The translations under genes were made by a program, and so were the position numbers. Positions 2,028-12,121 of a stretch of 64,000 nt of DNA are shown here, in pieces. The DNA is from Candidatus Poribacteria bacterium (lineage in GTDB: Bacteria; Poribacteria; WGA-4E; PCPOR2b). The notes under the pieces were generated by a model. The model saw nothing but the letters and a program-made list of their open reading frames with translations, did no database searches and was not told where the DNA came from. The DNA lies in the NCBI GenBank assembly GCA_965116925.1, contig OZ220744.1:992001-1056000 (forward strand), in the 5' to 3' direction. The stretch's first letter is position 1; every line of letters begins with the position of its first letter.

Positions 2028-2966
2028 TTGAAGAGACATATTTATGCACTTATCACCTTCGTCTGCATTGTTAGCTACTTCGGTTGTGCTGGTGATAAGA
2101 CACCGACGGGTTGGGGGCAAATCGAGGCGGGAACAGAGGCGCACCTGTACGGTGTACACTTTGTTGACGCCAAACGTGGCTGGGCAGTTGGCACAGGCGG
2201 TTTGGTGCTATTCACACAAGATGGCGGTTCGACATGGCTAGTTCGCTCGCCTCAAAGAGCGATTACTCCTAACGCACTCAATAAAGTGCATTTCTCTACT
2301 CCCAACAACGGTTGGTCGGTCAGTATCAGAGGACAGATCCACTATACGGGAAGCGGCGGCAAATCGTGGACGGCACAAAAAAGCAATACGGACAGTGGAT
2401 TGCTCGACATCTATTTTCTAGATGAAACAGAAGGTTGGGCGGTCGGTGGAGGTGGTATCATCCTTCACACGAATAACGGTGGCGGTTCGTGGAGTCGCCA
2501 AAATTCACCGTCGACACCACACCTGTGGGCTGTGCATTTTGCTGATACGAAGCACGGCTGGGTTGTTGGCAAGGAGGGGAAGATCCTTCACACAAATGAC
2601 GGCGGCGGGCTCTGGTATGAACAACAGAGCAAGACCGAGCGATCACTGCTCGGTGTCTATTTTGTCAACCCACAGACGGGTTGGGTCGTTGGAACGGGGG
2701 GATTGATCCTGCATACTACCGACGGGGGTGCGAACTGGCAGTCCCAGAAAAGTGCTACAACGAAAACCTTGCGTGGCGTTGCATTTCGGGATTCCAAGCG
2801 GGGTTGGGCGGTCGGTGAAGATGGACTAATCCTACATACCACCGATGCCGGGGCGACGTGGTTGCCTCAAGCGAGTGGATCGCCAGAGCATCTTCTGGAC
2901 ATCTGTCTGTATAAAGCACACGCTTGGATCGTTGGGTCAAAAGGCACCATTTTACGTCTCAGTTGA
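2028..2966 (+). CDS. YCF48-like/BNR-repeat beta-propeller lipoprotein
   Basis: Repeated GWAVG..G.ILHT.DGG..W units; TTG start at 2028 after GAGGAGG; signal ending YFGC. Confidence 0.88.
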   Translation: MKRHIYALITFVCIVSYFGCAGDKTPTGWGQIEAGTEAHLYGVHFVDAKRGWAVGTGGLVLFTQDGGSTWLVRSPQRAITPNALNKVHFSTPNNGWSVSIRGQIHYTGSGGKSWTAQKSNTDSGLLDIYFLDETEGWAVGGGGIILHTNNGGGSWSRQNSPSTPHLWAVHFADTKHGWVVGKEGKILHTNDGGGLWYEQQSKTERSLLGVYFVNPQTGWVVGTGGLILHTTDGGANWQSQKSATTKTLRGVAFRDSKRGWAVGEDGLILHTTDAGATWLPQASGSPEHLLDICLYKAHAWIVGSKGTILRLS

Positions 2967-3071
2967 AACTTTGCCCGATATGGTGCAATTTAGATATTCC
3001 AAACCTAACCGAATCGGGCTGCAGGTAGTTTTGACAGTACTATTTATTCCCTTGAATTTTGGGAGGCGTAT

Positions 3072-3623
3072 ATGTATTGGAAATTGTTTTGCTTGTTCAG
3101 CCTCATCCTCTGCTTGCTATCATTTTTCGGATGTTCAGACGATACAAGCGACAAAATGACAGATACCGGCGATGTAAATGAAGATTCATCGTTTCAACTT
3201 GCCCCTAATTTCACGCTGCTGAACACAGAGCTGGAAGAAGTTAGCCTCTCTGATTATCAGGGTAAAGTTGTTATTGTGGATTTCTGGGCGACATGGTGTA
3301 AACCTTGCGAGGAAGAAATTCCACGCTTCATTGAACTATACGCCGAATATCGAGCGCAAGGATTTGAGATGATCGGTATCTCAACGGATGATGTAGAAGG
3401 ACGTCTAAAAAGTATTGAACTTTTCTTTCAGGAACTCAGTAAAGAAGGCTTCGACATCAATTACCCGATTCTTCTAGCAGCGTCCGACGTTATTCAAAGC
3501 TATCAAGTGCCTGTACTACCGTCCGCATATCTTATCAATCGTGATGGAGAAATTGTAAAGGTGTTCAGCGGTGCACAAGAAGATAAAGCAACCTACGAAA
3601 GCGAGTTAAAAAAATGGTTATAA
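3072..3623 (+). CDS. TlpA-family thiol-disulfide oxidoreductase lipoprotein
   Basis: APNFTL...GKVVIVDFWATWCKPC; signal ending FFGC. Confidence 0.92.
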   Translation: MYWKLFCLFSLILCLLSFFGCSDDTSDKMTDTGDVNEDSSFQLAPNFTLLNTELEEVSLSDYQGKVVIVDFWATWCKPCEEEIPRFIELYAEYRAQGFEMIGISTDDVEGRLKSIELFFQELSKEGFDINYPILLAASDVIQSYQVPVLPSAYLINRDGEIVKVFSGAQEDKATYESELKKWL

Positions 3624-5047
3624 GAGATGGACTAAATAAAATTCAACTAATGATGGTTTTGGCGGCTGCTCTTATGTTGTGCCTTAGTTGCGGCAGCGAC
3701 GACGAATCTATCGTGGAACCGGATACCTCCGTGGAGCCAGACACATCAACCGGGGAGCCTGATCCTGTTGCTGCAACAGGCAGCCTAAAGGGAACGGTCG
3801 ACAAGATTGACGGTATCTCAGTGGCTATCCGCGTCCTACAAAATGGCAATGCCGTTGCCTCTGCTACAGCGGATGCCGATGGAAACTACCAAATTGATAA
3901 TATTGCACCGGGGACTTATACAGTCGAAATTGGCGCGAAGGGATATGAAACTGCCAAACAAACCGTTCAGGTTAGCGCGGATAAAGTTGCATCGCTGGAT
4001 AGAGCGGTGCTCAAGGAGTTAGAAATCCCCGTTGCCCATATCCAAGGCACCTTATCTGATCGACTAAAGGGAAGTCCCCTTAGCAACGTCCGCGTTCGAC
4101 TTGTTGATGCAGCGGGTAATTCCCGCGAGGTGTTGACGACGCAAACGGGTGCCTATCAATTTGAAAATGTCCCCACAGATCAGCGATTCACCGTCATCGT
4201 CCAGCTTGACGGGTTTGAAAAGGAGGAGTTTTCTGTTGATCCAATCGCAGCTGGCCAAACCACTATGTTGGACATCGCGCTTGATGCGTCTCTCCTTATT
4301 CGCGGGCTCGTACTAGATCAGGTCACGAAAAAACCTGTTGTCAATGTGCGTGTTCAATTAACCGATGGAGCAGGGGCTGTCTTGGAAACAGCAACAACGG
4401 GGTTGGGTGCCTTTGAGTTTGAAGGGGTTACACCGGATCCGCAACTTACGCTTACTATTGAGTCCAATGAACATGAGAAACTCGAATTGCCTGTTGGTTC
4501 CATTGGAGGCGGAACGGAACATTTCGATCTCCAGCTTATTCCGCTCAACCCGGAGCAACTTCCAGAAGGCGATGGTCTTGCTATTGGCTTGAAAGCGCCG
4601 GACTTCAACCTGCCTAATAGTGATGGGGAGATGGTAGCCCTTGCAGATTACGCAGGCGAGCAAAAGGTTGTGCTCGTCTTTGACCGCGGTGGATGGTGAG
4701 GTTCATGCATTGTGCAACTCGGAGAGTTGCAACAAGATTATGCAGCAATTCAGGCGGCGGGGGCTGAACTTCTCGCAATCAGCACAGATAACGCAGCACA
4801 GGCAAAGAAGGCGATTGCGGATGTTAAAAGGCGGGTTGGCGTTGAAATTGAATTTCCGCTGCTTGGAGACCCGGAATTGAAGGCAATTAATGCGTACAAC
4901 GCAAGGGATCCACTAAATCCTCGGATCGCACGTCCCATGACCTACATCATTGATGAGAGCGGGGTTATCCGCTGGAAATTCCTTGATGTGCGCGTTGGAA
5001 ACCGGCTGAAGGGCGATAGGATTGTGGCGGAGTTGAAAAGTTTGTAG
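3614..5047 (+). CDS. Predicted selenoprotein lipoprotein: three carboxypeptidase-regulatory-like domains plus AhpC/TSA (Prx-like) domain with UxxC; Sec UGA at 4697-4699
   Basis: ORFs 3614-4699 and 4712-5047 are in frame: APDFNL...VLVFDRGGW-TGA-GSCIVQLGELQ...RPMTYIIDESGVIRW; hairpin just downstream; signal ending CLSC. Confidence 0.85.
4710..4735 (+). promoter_or_regulatory. Putative bacterial SECIS element
   Basis: tgcaactc-gga-gagttgca perfect 8-bp stem (4713-4731), extended by ttg/caa; G-containing loop starts 22 nt after the UGA. Confidence 0.7.
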
Positions 5048-5108
5048 GTAGTCAAAGTTCAAATAGGATGAATGATTACTGTCGAGTTTTGAAGGTGAGG
5101 AGACAACA

Positions 5109-5342
5109 ATGTTAAACGTTCAATTTGAAAGTGTGTCTGAAAACCGTGTCTTAATACCTAAGGGGACTCTGGAAAAGCTAATCCAGTTAGCTAGCCAAGT
5201 TGATGAAATTGAAATCAATGAGATATGTGATAAGACGCAAGCAGAACGTGGTTCGCTGCAAGGGATTTGGAAGGGAAGTCAAGTCAGTGAGAAGGACCTA
5301 CTTGATGCTCGCCGTACTCTTTTTACCTATGAGGAGCCTTAA
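5109..5342 (+). CDS. Putative antitoxin of a type II PIN (VapBC-like) pair
   Basis: 77 aa; stop overlaps PIN start (TAATG); RGSLQGIWKG motif like small PIN partners. Confidence 0.65.
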   Translation: MLNVQFESVSENRVLIPKGTLEKLIQLASQVDEIEINEICDKTQAERGSLQGIWKGSQVSEKDLLDARRTLFTYEEP

Positions 5343-5640
5343 TGAATTATGTGACTGATACGCACGCAATCGTCTGGTATTTCGCAGACGATCCGAGGCT
5401 AAGTCCAAATGCGCGTCTAGCTTTTGAGCAAACAATAACAGTTGGTGTGATTATTATTCCTATCATTGTGTTGGCTGAGATAATGTACATCTCCCAGAAG
5501 GGAAGAATTTCTATGACCTTTGAAGAAACTCTTTCCCATATTGAGACGTATGAGAATTTTCGCATTGCCGCATTGGACCTTGATATTCTTGGGGTTGCGG
5601 CGAACGTTGGCGGCGATTTAGAAATGCACGATAAACTATA

Positions 5641-7005
5641 CTAAAGTTTAGACAATTTTAATGCAAAAAGGCAGAAAAGAGGTTATCCTTTCAGAAATCC
5701 ATCACAATTTTGAAAGGAGAAGTTATGTACCTCATATTCTGCCTGAATGCTATTTTAACCGATTTTCGTCCGTTATTCAAGTCTCAAAACTTTCATCTGT
5801 TTTGTGTCTTTGTTGTGGGACTTATCACACAGCGCGAAGGTGCGACGCTGACCGGCATTTATCAAGCGGTTCGTCCGAAAACGGGTTACCACTCGCTGGT
5901 GAAGTTCCTTTCGCGTGGCAAGTGGGACGCCGATAGAGTCGGTCACCATCTGCTGAAGTTGTTACAGAGGTGTTTCGATAACTGGGTCTACGTTTACGAT
6001 GAGACGCACGCACGAAAGACCGGCGAGACACAATTTGGACTTCATTTTTTCAGGAACCATCGCTATCACACACGCAACACGAATCAATCGAAGTTTCACC
6101 ATGGTCATCAGTTTGGTGCATTGGGATTACTTTGTAGCACCGTCCACGAGACGATACTTTTTCCGGTGTTTGTCAAGTTGATGTGTCCACAGACAAAGCG
6201 CGACACTAGTGAGTCAGTCCTCAAACGGATGTGCAGCCGCATCCCTGCGGGACTGATTATCTTTGACCGGGGATTCGCTCGACAGAAAGTGTTTGGCTGT
6301 GTCCTTAAAGCGGGACATCACCTGTTGTGTCGTGCCAAGTCGAATGCAGTGTTCTATCGGTTACCTACCGCTGCCAAGCAATCCAAACCCGGCAGACCTA
6401 AGAGATACGGCAAACGGATTCATCTGCCGTATCTGCGGTATAAAACGACTGACATTGACGACAAACAGTATGCCATAGCAAGTATAGTCGCCCGAACCAA
6501 AATGTGTCCACAACCCGTTCGGGTCGTGGTGATGCGAACGCGTGACAAAAGGCGTAAGCCGTTTCGATACTTCTGTGTCTTTACCACTGACTTAACTCTA
6601 GATTTACCGCAGATTGTTCGATACTACCAAAAGAGATGGTTGATTGAGACCGCCTTTCGGGACACCAAGCAACACTTCGGATTTGACACCTATCGGGTCA
6701 AGTGTCGAAAAAGTATCAATCGGTTTGTCCAACTCAGTTTCATAGCCAGTTGCATGACCCAACTGTTATTCGCTGTCACTTCCCATACTGACACGCCGGT
6801 AACCATCGAGCAGGTAACTCAGACATTGGGCATTGATTGGTATCGACCCGCTAAGTTGACACGCGGGTTGATGGTGCGGTATCTACGGACTTTAATGGAA
6901 AACCGATTAGTTTCTGCGATGTTCGGTAAAAACATCAATGCCGACGATATTCAACAAACCCTTGATACGGCTACATCAAGAAAATAAAAATTGTCTAAAC
7001 TTTAG
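5641..7005 (+). mobile_element. IS4/IS701-like insertion sequence
   Basis: Perfect 19-bp TIRs CTAAAGTTTAGACAATTTT (5641-5659, 6987-7005); 9-bp TSD TAAACTATA at 5632-5640 and 7006-7014. Confidence 0.93.
5725..6987 (+). CDS. DDE transposase (IS4/IS701-like)
   Basis: YVYDET, IFDRGF and YQKRWLIETAFRDTK (Y-2-R-3-E-6-K); ATG after AAGGAG. Confidence 0.92.
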   Translation: MYLIFCLNAILTDFRPLFKSQNFHLFCVFVVGLITQREGATLTGIYQAVRPKTGYHSLVKFLSRGKWDADRVGHHLLKLLQRCFDNWVYVYDETHARKTGETQFGLHFFRNHRYHTRNTNQSKFHHGHQFGALGLLCSTVHETILFPVFVKLMCPQTKRDTSESVLKRMCSRIPAGLIIFDRGFARQKVFGCVLKAGHHLLCRAKSNAVFYRLPTAAKQSKPGRPKRYGKRIHLPYLRYKTTDIDDKQYAIASIVARTKMCPQPVRVVVMRTRDKRRKPFRYFCVFTTDLTLDLPQIVRYYQKRWLIETAFRDTKQHFGFDTYRVKCRKSINRFVQLSFIASCMTQLLFAVTSHTDTPVTIEQVTQTLGIDWYRPAKLTRGLMVRYLRTLMENRLVSAMFGKNINADDIQQTLDTATSRK

Positions 7006-7012
7006 TAAACTA

Positions 7013-7114
7013 TAGTGAATTCAAAAAATAAACAGACACTTTCGCCCTCCACCTGGTAGGCGCTGTTTCCAACTGCGCCGATTTGGAGTGTCTCATTAAT
7101 TCTAAAATCTACTA
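7013..7114 (-). mobile_element. MITE family A (TA target duplication), copy 1
   Basis: Imperfect ~28-bp TIRs tagtgaattcaaaaaataaacagacact / agtgtctcattaattctaaaatctacta; TA on both sides; homologous to 18216-18319 and 20701-20861. Confidence 0.85.
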
Positions 7115-7215
7115 TAATTGTCGCAACTACGCTTTATTTCGATGCCCATTTGATTACCAAAGATGGGCAAATCACTCAAAGCGGAGTTGTAAATACTGTT
7201 TGGTAGACTTAGTGA

Positions 7216-8394
7216 ATGCATTCAATGACAGATAAAATACGACCCACATCCGATCCCATTGTTGCACAGATTCAAGTGGACTGCGACCAGATTTCACGTA
7301 CACAGGCTGCCATACCACAATCGGTGAGTCGCCGCCGATTTTTGCGTCAGGCGTCGAAAGGCGTGTTTGGGATGGGACTCGCGTTGGGAGGCGTAGCTTC
7401 AGCCACTAAAGGGGCTTTTGCTCAGTTGGGGCGTCAGTCCGGCGGTTCGCCGGGAGAGATAATCGAAGAAGAACTCACGCCGCTGGTCGAAGCGAGAAGT
7501 GAAAAAGTTTGGAATGGCGACATGCTTGACGAGGGGGTTGTCAGTGAGATGATTGATCGCGCAATGATGAAGCTGACCGGGCTTGATTCTGCGAAAGAGG
7601 CGTGGAAGGATTTTGTCCTTCCGACAGACATCGTTGGAATTAAAATCAATCCACTTGCCGGAGAGAAGTTGAGCACCCATCGCATAATCGTTGATAAGAT
7701 TATTGAAGGGTTGTATGGAGCGGGTATCCTCAGCAATCAGATCATCATCTGGGATCGGTTTGAATCTCACCTAATCAATGCGGGGTATGAGATCAATCAA
7801 AGCGATCGAGGGGTTCGGTGCTTCGCATCGGACAGCGAAGGTGTCGGTTACGACGATGAGGTTTTCTACGAAACTGAGAAGGATGTCGCGGTTCGCCGCG
7901 AGAATGAAAGTATCCTGTCCCGATACACAAAACTCCTCACTAAAGAGTTGACAGTGGTTATTAACGTCCCGGTGATGAAGCATCATGGGATTGCTGGTGT
8001 GAGTGGTTGTCTGAAAAACCTCGCCTTTGGGAGTGTGGATAACACCTCCCGTTTCCACTCAAATCCCATAAATTGTAACCCCGCTATCGCTGATATCTTC
8101 GCGCATACTGTCCTCAAAGATAAAGTTGTTTTGAACATCGTTGATGGGTTGCTTGCCGCGTTCGATGGGGGACCGACGTATGACCCCAACGGGGTTTGGC
8201 AGTATGGTGGTATCCTTGTGAGTCAGGATCCGGTTGCATTGGACCAAATTGTCTATCAAACGATTGAGGAAAAGCGGAAGGAGCTTGAGTTGCCGACCCT
8301 CTCGCGGATATCGAAATACATCCGTTCAGCATCAAGGATGGATTTGGGCACTAACGACCTTGATGATGTGGATTATCAAGAGGTAAAGATATAA
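7216..8394 (+). CDS. DUF362-domain protein with twin-arginine signal
   Basis: SRRRFLR plus hydrophobic stretch; VGIKINP, INVPVMKHH, SGCLKNL, DPVALD motifs. Confidence 0.85.
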   Translation: MHSMTDKIRPTSDPIVAQIQVDCDQISRTQAAIPQSVSRRRFLRQASKGVFGMGLALGGVASATKGAFAQLGRQSGGSPGEIIEEELTPLVEARSEKVWNGDMLDEGVVSEMIDRAMMKLTGLDSAKEAWKDFVLPTDIVGIKINPLAGEKLSTHRIIVDKIIEGLYGAGILSNQIIIWDRFESHLINAGYEINQSDRGVRCFASDSEGVGYDDEVFYETEKDVAVRRENESILSRYTKLLTKELTVVINVPVMKHHGIAGVSGCLKNLAFGSVDNTSRFHSNPINCNPAIADIFAHTVLKDKVVLNIVDGLLAAFDGGPTYDPNGVWQYGGILVSQDPVALDQIVYQTIEEKRKELELPTLSRISKYIRSASRMDLGTNDLDDVDYQEVKI

Positions 8395-8451
8395 TTGACT
8401 GAAGGGCGAGAAGAATCTGTTTCACATTTGAGACAAAAGGAGATAAACGCT

Positions 8452-8691
8452 ATGAAAAGTCTTTGGTTAGGTTGCACGGTTTTGGTTGTAGTTTTCGGAT
8501 TAATCGCTCTCTCCGGCTGCGTCACAACTTTCACCTCGAGCGGACAATTACAAGTTGGGTTGTCCCAATCGGCGAACGAAACGGTAGACATCCTTGCGGA
8601 TTTCGAAGCTAGCGAAGCGACTACGGTTGCCGGTGATGTGACGAAAAAAGCGGGTAGCATCTGTGCGGGCGGAGCTTGTATAATCTACTAA
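8452..8691 (+). CDS. Small lipoprotein with C-terminal CAGGACIIY tail
   Basis: ATG after AAGGAG; signal MKSLWLGCTVLVVVFGLIALSGC with LSGC lipobox; 79 aa. Confidence 0.75.
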   Translation: MKSLWLGCTVLVVVFGLIALSGCVTTFTSSGQLQVGLSQSANETVDILADFEASEATTVAGDVTKKAGSICAGGACIIY

Positions 8692-8779
8692 AAATTATCT
8701 GACTTTATTCATGGGGACAGGCCATCCTACGGAACAGCTTTGGGAGTAGTGCCCCTATTTTTTCGGGAGGAAACAGGAG

Positions 8780-9994
8780 TTGCGAAAACGGTTTCATCGC
8801 TCTTCATTTAAGCCAATTTACTATATATTCATGATAACGCTACTACTGGTTGAGGCTTCACTTGCGTCTGCTCAACTCCGACGCGAATACGGTCAGCAAC
8901 TGTTACAACAGAAGACGGAAGCACCCGTAGCCTTTGAATCTGATCTCACTATCGACTATGAGGTAAGCAATGTCTTTAACAATCACGTCGAATTTGGACT
9001 GAGCATCGATCCAAATACAAGTAGCCTTGCTAGACGTGAAGACCCACAACTCATAGGTGTAATCAACCGTGTTGGTGTCAATCTTCAGGGGACCTTACCG
9101 ATTGGGAAACGTTTTGGGCTCACGTTGCAATACTATCCACAATTGGAAAATTATATCGGTGAGAATGGAAAACTCAATGAGTTTGATGCGTTCACAGATC
9201 TCTTTTTGACCGAGCTCAGTTATCGTCCAACAGCGCAGCTGCCTATCTTGAGTGTATCACATCAGTTACAGCGATTGGATCGGAGAGACGATGCCTTTGA
9301 CAACCTGCAACGCCAAATCAGTTTCCGCTTCGGTAAGCTATTGGAATATAATCTTTACATCAACCGCTTTGACGACGAAATGACACGGCGTGCAGATTTC
9401 CTACTCGTTGGTTCGACAATGCATCAAGGGCGAGCAAGGATACAGTTGGGGATTCTCAAATCACTATTGGCGAAATTGGAGTATTCACTGGAGCAGGAAA
9501 GTTATGAAGGCAACCTAAATGACCTATTGTTGGGCATCGCTGGGATTGAAAAGGGAGATTCGCGAACAGATCTGCGAAACCTTGTGTCGGCGAAATTGAT
9601 TCAGATTCCAGCGGCGCGACTCCTCTTTCAGCAGGAGTTGAACCTACTTCTGAGTAACTCAAATGTCGGTTTCTACGATTTCTCTACAATTGAAGCAGCG
9701 GTTGGGGCGTTCTACAAAATCAACGACGGAAGTTGGGCGCGTCTACGATTATCGCGATTGGGTATTACCTTCGATGGCCGCCGGGTGCGGGGTGCGGATG
9801 GTTTTGTCGATGAGAACGCAGAGAAACGACGGGATAATCAATTCGGCGTAACCTTCCAGATTAATTGGCAGCTCCGCAATTCCCTGACGCTTCTTGCAGA
9901 TTACCAACTCACACTCAATGACACCAATGAAAACTTTGACTTCTTGAATTACACCCACAATGTTGCGTCTCTGACGCTTCAAGCAACCTATTAA
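8780..9994 (+). CDS. Putative outer-membrane beta-barrel protein
   Basis: Signal peptide ending ASLASA, alternating amphipathic strands, C-terminal SLTLQATY aromatic end. Confidence 0.72.
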   Translation: MRKRFHRSSFKPIYYIFMITLLLVEASLASAQLRREYGQQLLQQKTEAPVAFESDLTIDYEVSNVFNNHVEFGLSIDPNTSSLARREDPQLIGVINRVGVNLQGTLPIGKRFGLTLQYYPQLENYIGENGKLNEFDAFTDLFLTELSYRPTAQLPILSVSHQLQRLDRRDDAFDNLQRQISFRFGKLLEYNLYINRFDDEMTRRADFLLVGSTMHQGRARIQLGILKSLLAKLEYSLEQESYEGNLNDLLLGIAGIEKGDSRTDLRNLVSAKLIQIPAARLLFQQELNLLLSNSNVGFYDFSTIEAAVGAFYKINDGSWARLRLSRLGITFDGRRVRGADGFVDENAEKRRDNQFGVTFQINWQLRNSLTLLADYQLTLNDTNENFDFLNYTHNVASLTLQATY

Positions 9995-10068
9995 TAATGC
10001 AAGTTGCTAGTGGCTGAAAGTCCATCGGTTTTCTTGCAGGGGGATTCTCACCCGTCTAGTCAATCCTT

Positions 10069-10150
10069 TGCCTTTCGCTCCAGAGGAGCGATATGTCTAT
10101 AGAAAGTAATACTCCAATCCCCGCGCTCCAGAGGAGCACAATGTGTATAG
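10069..10150 (+). repeat. REP-like doublet, copy 2
   Basis: tgcctttcgctccagaggagcgatatgtctatagaaa plus gcgctccagaggagcacaatgtgtatag; matches 1832-1916. Confidence 0.75.
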
Positions 10151-10382
10151 CAAGAACTGTTGCACAAGAGCTTAGGCTGCTCTGGACAAAAGGTTAGCGT
10201 AAGTAGATTTAACCACTCCTTGTAGAATATCATAAAGTTGAAAAGTTCATCCGTGTTCAAGCAGCGGATGAAAAACCCTTGAAAGTTAATGAAACTGTAT
10301 TCGTGCAGGTTCGTTAAATCAGGTGTAAGCAGTTTCAACGACTCCTTGTTTAGTACTATAAAGTTGATGAAAATCACCCAGT

Positions 10383-11746: not shown

Positions 11747-11779
11747 CTCATTATGATGTAGTCTATGGAGGGAACAATC

Positions 11780-12121
11780 ATGAAAGATAACCTTGTTGCT
11801 TGGATTGCTATTGCGCTGCAAGTTGTAACTCTGGTCGGCGGTATTCTTTTTTACGTAATTTCGCTTGGTGCTGATCTTCGCACCATTAAAACCGAAATAT
11901 CTGGTCTTAACACTGAAATATCTGGTCTTAAAGCGGATATAAGAGATGTCCGTAACGAGATTAAAGATGTCCGTAACGAGATTAAAGATGTTCGTAACGA
12001 GATTAAAGATGTTCGTAACGAGATTAAAGATGTTCGTGATGAACTTAAAGAGGATATCAAGACCCTTAACCAGAATTACATAGATCATCTTGCTCATCAT
12101 ATCGGAAGTCCCAAACCATAG
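11780..12121 (+). CDS. Small membrane-anchored coiled-coil protein with heptad repeats
   Basis: ATG after GGAGG; N-terminal TM helix; (TEISGLN/K)x2 then (NEIKDVR)x4. Confidence 0.8.
   Translation: MKDNLVAWIAIALQVVTLVGGILFYVISLGADLRTIKTEISGLNTEISGLKADIRDVRNEIKDVRNEIKDVRNEIKDVRNEIKDVRDELKEDIKTLNQNYIDHLAHHIGSPKP
11891..12058 (+). repeat. 21-bp in-frame tandem repeat (VNTR)
   Basis: aacgagattaaagatgtYcgt x4 plus related units. Confidence 0.9.

Follow-up and report, generated by a model that had tools for sequence, protein, structure and literature searches.

Poribacteria, a phylum without cultured members, are known mainly as symbionts of sponges. The routes known to carry electrons over the outer membrane rely on multiheme cytochromes or flavins. 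MtrAB is a porin-cytochrome conduit, and DUF3570, a component of the flavin-linked clusters described below, is a barrel. The described clusters closest in layout to the locus considered here are flavinylation clusters that combine DsbD, a thioredoxin-like protein, DUF4266, DUF3570 and ApbE; they were proposed to draw electrons from DsbD, in a main text where the words 'porin' and 'barrel' do not occur (Meheust et al. 2021, PMC8238504). Separate parts of the locus have other precedents. In class Ia ribonucleotide reductase (RNR), a C-terminal CX4C motif moves between a redoxin, with which it exchanges, and a disulfide that is buried (PMC11067019); the bacterial selenocysteine insertion sequence (SECIS) consensus and the Prx-like UxxC class of selenoproteins (PF00578) have been reviewed (PMC13188914); and LarA/DUF2088 and DUF362 form clan CL0471 (PMC11770544). 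Here, we analysed a six-gene cluster in a stretch of 64,000 nucleotides, hereafter the window, from Candidatus Poribacteria bacterium (assembly GCA_965116925.1, contig OZ220744.1, positions 992001-1056000), which belongs to a single-contig genome of 6.47 Mb that is 99% complete (labelled G000). The last two genes of the cluster encode a small lipoprotein, called the lipopeptide below, and a predicted outer-membrane β-barrel. These form a phylum-conserved, dedicated pair with thiol/selenol reductase partners that is apparently undescribed; our literature search, in which supplements and most subscription papers were outside the scope, yielded no account of the cluster.

The genome encodes Omp85 proteins and is therefore that of a diderm. 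The six co-directional open reading frames (ORFs) reported by the initial annotation were found on the plus strand, at the coordinates given there, and are all real genes. Their export signals were judged by eye and comprise the lipoboxes FGC, FGC, LSC and LSGC, the motif SRRRFL and a signal-peptidase-I-type leader. The claim that all six products are exported agrees with the visible leaders, but the NCBIfam twin-arginine translocation (Tat) model scored the DUF362 leader below its cut-off (10.4 against 16.7 bits). The genes and the positions marked within them are as follows.

2028 to 2966, plus strand: YCF48/BNR β-propeller lipoprotein, accessory (PF14870, 5e-50)
3072 to 3623, plus strand: TlpA/ResA-like thioredoxin-fold lipoprotein with WCKPC (PF00578, 1.5e-26), core partner except in family f2
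3614 to 5047, plus strand: selenoprotein lipoprotein of 477 amino acids with three CarboxypepD_reg (Ig-like) repeats and an AhpC-TSA domain with UxxC (WUGSC)
4697 to 4699, plus strand: in-frame TGA, putative selenocysteine codon (UxxC in 30/30 loci; selA and tRNA-Sec in the genome)
4715 to 4729, plus strand: bacterial SECIS-type hairpin with a 6-bp stem and a GGA loop, 21 nt past the UGA
7225 to 8394 (ORF from 7216), plus strand: DUF362 protein with a twin-arginine-type leader, accessory (2.6e-21)
8452 to 8691, plus strand: prolipoprotein (the lipopeptide) of 79 amino acids, 57 in the mature form from the Cys at 8518, core
8662 to 8664 and 8677 to 8679, plus strand: Cys codons of the lipopeptide tail
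8780 to 9994, plus strand: outer-membrane β-barrel, core, single copy (predicted 16 strands, no plug domain)

The lipopeptide and the barrel

The lipopeptide of the window ends in CAGGACIIY before its stop codon. The CAGGAC ending that had been noticed earlier is present, but the true end lies three residues further on. The tail follows the motif C-x-[GN]-G-x-C-x-[IV]-[YF] (C-x4-C). Across 65 lipopeptides, which range down to 25% identity, four positions are invariant, namely the lipidated Cys, Cys49, Gly52 and Cys54. Both tail Cys are thus kept in 65/65, and Phe29 and Ile56 are nearly invariant. No further ORF in the window's genome has the ending C-x-[GNSDE]-G-x-C-x(1-4), and neither the lipopeptide nor the barrel contains the heme motif CxxCH. 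Neither protein matches a Pfam or NCBIfam family above cut-off; for the lipopeptide no Pfam match was significant, and PF14086 (DUF4266) was matched by 0/65 at E<=1. Searches of the Protein Data Bank sequences with profiles of DUF362, the lipopeptide and the barrel gave nothing significant, and every score of an Atlas search for the lipopeptide was below 0.9. A 1.84-billion library yielded 22 matches, of which 4 were long repeat proteins and were set aside; the named cluster members are Poribacteria. Longer or fused forms were not found in the search, which is weak evidence. One contig carries P0022, of 137 amino acids, in which a CarboxypepD-like fragment is joined to the lipopeptide tail and which could be a chimera made in assembly or a fusion made by a deletion. 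An acidic motif behind the lipobox was considered as a clue to surface export and was rejected, being common here (47/112 lipobox-like ORFs).

The barrel was modelled with 16 strands and no plug, at a predicted local distance difference test (pLDDT) of 84 and a predicted template modelling score of 0.80. Its best-conserved residues, including invariant His, Asp, Glu and Arg, are located in long loops, which are extracellular by the usual topology. Foldseek and VIA gave generic barrels only, with the top VIA rows tied at Z 18-20 (16-strand channels), and for this reason no specific barrel family is assigned. DUF3570 was matched by 0/65 barrels at E<=0.05, and a genome search for it was likewise blank, but its control matched nowhere. 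The families named by the initial annotation divide: DUF362 (2.6e-21) and AhpC-TSA were recovered, while no homology to DUF3570 or DUF4266 was found. In a search for barrel homologs, the best 120 of 412 matches were close relatives, and the Atlas look-alikes (scores 0.97-0.98) belong to unnamed clusters that are commonest in Verrucomicrobiota.

Among 176 Poribacteria genomes, 158 encode both the lipopeptide and the barrel, 13 encode neither and 5 encode one only; these discordant five (G087, G093, G125, G078 and G124) are 73-86% complete. The counts exclude weak matches in G061 (a lipopeptide at E 0.005, which a wider profile did not recover, and a partial barrel at E 0.003 and 4e-4) and, in G078, a lipopeptide match that contains a stop. 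A single-copy pair that is this close to universal points to core envelope biology of Poribacteria. Two genomes, G030 and G056 (95% complete; G056 is one contig), are without lipopeptide, barrel and TlpA ortholog and have kept DUF362 and DsbD. Since they belong to families with the two genes at separate loci, each needed two losses.

A model of the complex supports binding of the lipopeptide to the barrel. The combination, which the initial annotation had suggested modelling, scored 0.65, compared with 0.00 for the best of three controls, and passes a mark that is reached by 116/157 solved complexes and 2/215 mismatched pairs. At least 62% of the contacts agree between runs, and the partner pLDDT is at least 59. 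The confident contacts join lipopeptide residues 5-35 to the barrel where strands 4-15 end in short turns, a site that would be the periplasmic mouth, as deduced from strand order and alternation and not from coordinates. Residues I228, L236, F265 and W273 of the barrel are predicted in lumen-facing register around Phe29 (F265 is 95% and W273 94% conserved).

Gene order and reductase partners across Poribacteria

The order YCF48-TlpA-Sec-DUF362-lipopeptide-barrel, where Sec denotes the selenoprotein gene, was found in 19/19 genus relatives and also in G022 and G024; as it is kept in all 19 relatives, it is not due to chance. The initial annotation had held that missing synteny in relatives, or a DUF362-barrel half that never occurs with the TlpA half, would speak against its reading. 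The neighbourhood is conserved in these relatives, with all six genes together. Its larger claim, that the six genes make up one system, is not supported: DUF362 orthologs occur without the pair, the pair occurs without DUF362, and in genus g5 the Sec gene is gone from the cluster (4/4). In family f3 the order is TlpA-Sec-DUF362-(one gene)-lipopeptide at 6/7 of the loci fetched. The gene between DUF362 and the lipopeptide encodes a conserved protein of ~180 amino acids in 6/6 f3 loci having the lipopeptide (L067:9907-10449); this protein matches nothing in Pfam at E<=1e-5. In family f2, between one and three Sec genes accompany DUF362 and the lipopeptide in 8/9 loci. The barrel of f2 and f3 is elsewhere, immediately behind a gene that looks thiG-like by eye (7/7 and 10/11 loci). 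The thiG of the window's own genome (C1:1805164-1805922) is ~800 kb away.

A resemblance to gene clusters made of TlpA, a small Cys-tailed lipoprotein and a barrel had also been pointed out, and it is borne out, since this trio is the minimal contiguous unit in another order of Poribacteria and in the basal family of the window's order. In family f4, TlpA-lipopeptide-barrel was found in 7/7 loci, with a stalked UxxC gene ahead in 6/7; DUF362 is elsewhere, and the YCF48 gene moves together with it in part of the family. In family f8, of another order, the lipopeptide and barrel genes are adjacent in 7/8 genomes, and 6 of those 7 have TlpA immediately ahead of them. A second TlpA-like gene lies between in two of these six loci, and tandem TlpA-like genes precede the lipopeptide and barrel in G074 and G073. 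The idea that a selenoprotein and DUF362 stand in place of an ApbE is not supported, as DUF362 and the pair occur separately and the Sec gene was not found at the f8 loci. Among 16 metagenome loci, the lipopeptide follows DUF362 in 7 and precedes the barrel in 9, in 8 of these 9 after TlpA. Two FastTree phylogenies made with no clade test, one for the barrel with f8 as root and one for DUF362 with midpoint rooting, both give (f4,(f2,(f1,f3))); this concordance suggests that the barrel left the operon and then returned beside the lipopeptide in f1. The six-gene cassette is not one fixed unit. Its core consists of the lipopeptide, the barrel and, next to them, a lipoprotein of thioredoxin fold (TlpA and/or Sec); DUF362, YCF48 and Sec are accessory.

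The ATG of the Sec gene overlaps the end of tlpA by 10 nt, in accordance with the overlap noted initially. The UxxC motif was present in 30/30 best-matching Sec-gene loci. In the SECIS hairpin all 174 cells are paired in 29 sequences, with a compensatory change at 2/6 pairs, and codon constraint contributes to this conservation. On these sequence features the TGA of the window is of selenocysteine type, and we infer that selenocysteine is incorporated there; under table 11 the selenoprotein reads as two pieces. The CarboxypepD_reg repeats likely form a stalk. The length of this stalk varies widely (open frames of 304-487 amino acids), as would be expected if Ig-like repeats are gained and lost, and the Sec gene is broken in G017. 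Five more AhpC-TSA paralogs in the genome have an in-frame TGA at the redox position (C1 1526717, 2097947, 4720870, 4745411 and 4745864); they are of UxxS, UxxC and UxxD type and two with TGGU, and indicate an expanded selenoproteome. In 27 genomes of f2, a TlpA ortholog was not found (best 108-124 bits, compared with 218-229), and UxxC selenoproteins stand in its stead in the operon there. A thioredoxin-fold lipoprotein, with CxxC or UxxC, thus accompanies the lipopeptide in every lipopeptide-bearing family.

The start of the DUF362 protein is placed at the Met at 7225 because its relatives are 389 amino acids long. Residues K61, K173, C183, K185 and H199 are invariant (numbering of alignment A2). 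Its model has a pLDDT of 66, and the top five fold matches are to the LarA family at Z 7.1-8.9, the best with a root mean square deviation of 4.4 over 184 aligned residues. The genome contains larC, for which another ORF, LarA-like by eye, could account.

The Sec and DUF362 genes of the window are separated by inserted elements, listed here.

5109 to 5342, plus strand: ORF of 77 amino acids, presumed antitoxin from position alone, inserted and outside the system (no significant family match)
5342 to 5640, plus strand: PIN-domain gene, 5' piece (PF01850, 4.6e-5; the G005 copy is uninterrupted)
5641 to 7005, plus strand: insertion sequence (IS) with a DDE transposase (5710/5725-6987) and terminal inverted repeats
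5632 to 5640 and 7006 to 7014: 9-nt direct repeat flanking the IS
7011 to 7116, no strand given: short multi-copy repeat element of ~106 nt, resembling a miniature inverted-repeat transposable element, nested at the IS site (depth spike; many loose ends at 7011/7117)
7117 to 7206, plus strand: PIN-domain gene, 3' piece (by comparison with the intact G005 ORF)

The interruption is thus a small ORF and a PIN gene that is cut by the IS and the short repeat element. This agrees with the toxin-antitoxin pair and insertions described initially, except that the antitoxin is presumed from its position and matches no family. The junction is an insertion hot spot in the genus: inserts of 0.5-2 kb occur in 5/19 relatives (G005, G007, G008, G012 and G016), some of them with the same toxin-antitoxin-type genes, and the gap is below 350 nt in 14/19. 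Copies of a 40-nt repeat family stand on both flanks of the cluster (1829-1919 and 10066-10153, the pair being 95% identical), where raised read depth suggests a genome-wide repeat. Tandem DUF418 membrane-protein paralogs are found upstream (18-593 and 661-1764), with 0 to 3 copies among genus relatives. The ORF 11765-12121 encodes 118 amino acids with one transmembrane segment and tandem 7-residue repeats (DVRNEIK), and is open on both strands. Neither the promoter scan nor the terminator scan rose above chance (14 against 11.9 expected, and 8 against 7.8). Metatranscriptome contigs cover both halves of the cluster and were rejected as proof of transcription or co-transcription, because the IS and repeats are covered likewise.

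A proposed tethered dithiol arm and its alternatives

The reading that we favour, and to which we give about an even chance, is that the lipopeptide tail is redox-cycled within the barrel complex as a tethered dithiol arm recharged via DsbD. In the predicted complex, the N-terminal half of the lipopeptide occupies the periplasmic mouth of the barrel, and the free C-x4-C tail would form an arm that cycles between dithiol and disulfide. DsbD would pass electrons to TlpA or to the Sec domain, after the established DsbD-TlpA chemistry, and TlpA or the selenocysteine thioredoxin would re-reduce the tail. The arm could then reach through the lumen and reduce an oxidant on the cell surface or close to it, be it a disulfide, a metal or another. 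The 20 residues from the docked Phe29 to Cys49 extend up to about 65-70 Å, which is enough to span a barrel, so the arm could meet an acceptor inside the barrel or on the cell surface. DUF362 and YCF48 would likely be co-regulated periplasmic clients or passengers of the reducing pathway.

A further step, which we regard as tentative and rather doubtful, would make the complex a heme- and flavin-free electron conduit over the outer membrane, in which a porin-seated, lipid-anchored peptide swings its dithiol arm outward from thioredoxin or selenothioredoxin donors. If so, Poribacteria could reduce extracellular disulfides, metals or host oxidants, and a porin bearing such an arm would add a third chemistry to cytochromes and flavins, in a system reconstitutable from three proteins.

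Several observations weigh against the redox-cycled arm. In f2 and f3 the lipopeptide adjoins DUF362 and not the barrel, and dsbD, which encodes a protein of 619 amino acids with WCAAC, lies elsewhere in the window's genome, outside the cluster. No downstream carrier is identified, because the barrel has neither Cys (none in the mature window barrel or in 61/65 aligned rows) nor a flavinylation motif: [S/T]GA[S/T] is found in 0/65 aligned rows, which omit the first 10-15 mature residues, and nowhere in the window's full sequence. The Cys tail is outside the confident contacts and may point to the lumen or to the periplasm. C-x-[GN]-G-x-C is also common as a structural disulfide hairpin. Furthermore, the 13 joint absences of the pair amount to few independent events, as kin are not independent, and the calibration behind the complex score of 0.65 holds only roughly for user-supplied alignments.

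Alternatively, the barrel may be a solute channel whose partner is a redox-controlled plug or metal catcher, the Cys tail binding a soft metal (Cu, Ni or Hg) or gating the pore and TlpA or Sec keeping the tail reduced. The plug-less 16-strand barrel, its invariant His, Asp, Glu and Arg in long, presumably extracellular loops, the predicted place of the lipopeptide in the barrel mouth and the apparently LarA-like fold of DUF362, from a nickel-cofactor superfamily, would all suit such a role. However, no metal-transport or TonB gene is among the recurrent neighbours (22 neighbours scanned), the tail offers only two Cys ligands, and the pair persists without DUF362, and we consider this explanation unlikely.

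The tail might instead re-reduce a conserved Cys of the periplasmic DUF362 enzyme, as in RNR, and the barrel would provide the anchor and the entry for the substrate. The lipopeptide does follow DUF362 in f1, f2 and f3 and is present in 76/80 DUF362-centred loci, and the enzyme has suitable residues, C183 being invariant in 51/51 and C205 kept in 46/51. But DUF362 orthologs persist without the lipopeptide in G030, in G056 and in 5 genomes of f5-f9, where they score 380-434 bits and the barrel is missing as well. Conversely, the pair is present where no close DUF362 was found (G034, which is 96% complete, and f8, with distant matches only), and f4 unlinks the two genes. Such a service to DUF362 is improbable.

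Slightly less probable again is a Slam-like export of lipoproteins, for example of the stalked selenoprotein, or a lipopeptide that helps to assemble the barrel or senses as RcsF does, its disulfide hairpin being purely structural. The barrel has weak SlipAM and BBP2_2 matches, its Atlas look-alikes fall in clusters with 32-41% SlipAM or BBP2_2 members, and its top tied fold matches (Z about 19) are the polypeptide or polymer translocators CdiB, PelB, FhaC and PgaA; RcsF gives a precedent for a lipoprotein in a barrel (10.1101/823146). Yet SlipAM (PF04575) reaches 16.2 bits against a cut-off of 22 and is matched by 1/65 barrels at E<=0.05, and the barrel model has no periplasmic TPR or POTRA domain, only ~20 low-confidence N-terminal residues. 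A structural disulfide would also leave the constant linkage to reductase-type CxxC/UxxC proteins unexplained. Inertia of gene order, with unrelated envelope genes as chance neighbours, fits a cluster that is reshuffled between families and holds an insertion hot spot, and it may apply to YCF48 and DUF362, but for the pair it is very improbable, given that lipopeptide and barrel were lost jointly from separate loci, seem to have come together again in f1 and pass as a modelled complex. Even under these alternatives, the lipopeptide and the barrel would be a new dedicated barrel-lipoprotein pair.

Comparison with described systems

The Slam (SlipAM) translocon has an N-terminal TPR domain and a 14-strand barrel; the barrel described here differs in its 16 predicted strands, the lack of a TPR domain in the model and a PF04575 score below cut-off. 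The porin-cytochrome conduit MtrAB would share with the complex, if this is an electron conduit, a barrel that houses a redox carrier, but here heme motifs are absent, the barrel is smaller and the chemistry would be that of thiols.

The LarA family provides the best structure match of the DUF362 protein (Z 8.9), on a weak model with a pLDDT of 66 and in keeping with their common clan, and the window protein differs from it in its Tat-type leader and invariant Cys (PMC11770544). The window selenoprotein is, by its sequence, an addition to the Prx-like UxxC class already described. It has the AhpC-TSA domain with UxxC and a consensus-fitting SECIS (16-37 nt downstream, G in the loop) of the Prx-like thiol:disulfide oxidoreductase selenoproteins, and differs from them in being lipid-anchored, in its Ig-like stalk of varying repeat number and in its tie to an envelope cluster (PMC13188914). 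The tail of the lipopeptide resembles that of class Ia/II RNR in having CX4C in the last 8-9 residues and in its flexibility, with no confident contacts here; exchange with a redoxin is known from RNR. In contrast to the RNR tail it belongs to a free-standing, exported lipopeptide of 79 amino acids and is not fused to a catalytic subunit, and no homology is claimed (PMC11067019). The predicted place of a small lipoprotein in the periplasmic mouth of a barrel recalls the complexes of RcsF with outer-membrane proteins and BamA (10.1101/823146) and LptD-LptE/LptM, although the sequences are unrelated and the present pair is dedicated, single-copy and equipped with a free dithiol tail.

The closest likeness in layout is to the DsbD/DUF4266/DUF3570/ApbE clusters of PMC8238504, as its main text describes them. 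Common to both are the three-gene layout, a thioredoxin-like protein in the cluster and a DsbD in the genome, here outside the cluster. The differences are that DUF3570 or DUF4266 is not matched in 65/65 members, that C-x4-C stands instead of CXC, that the [S/T]GA[S/T] motif and ApbE are missing, the latter from the 99%-complete window genome by a search whose control matched in 8 of 14, and that selenoproteins would serve as optional reductants. On these sequence criteria the cluster resembles that system in layout but is not a member of it. The predicted seating of the lipopeptide in the barrel offers a structural hypothesis for the analogous DUF4266/DUF3570 clusters.

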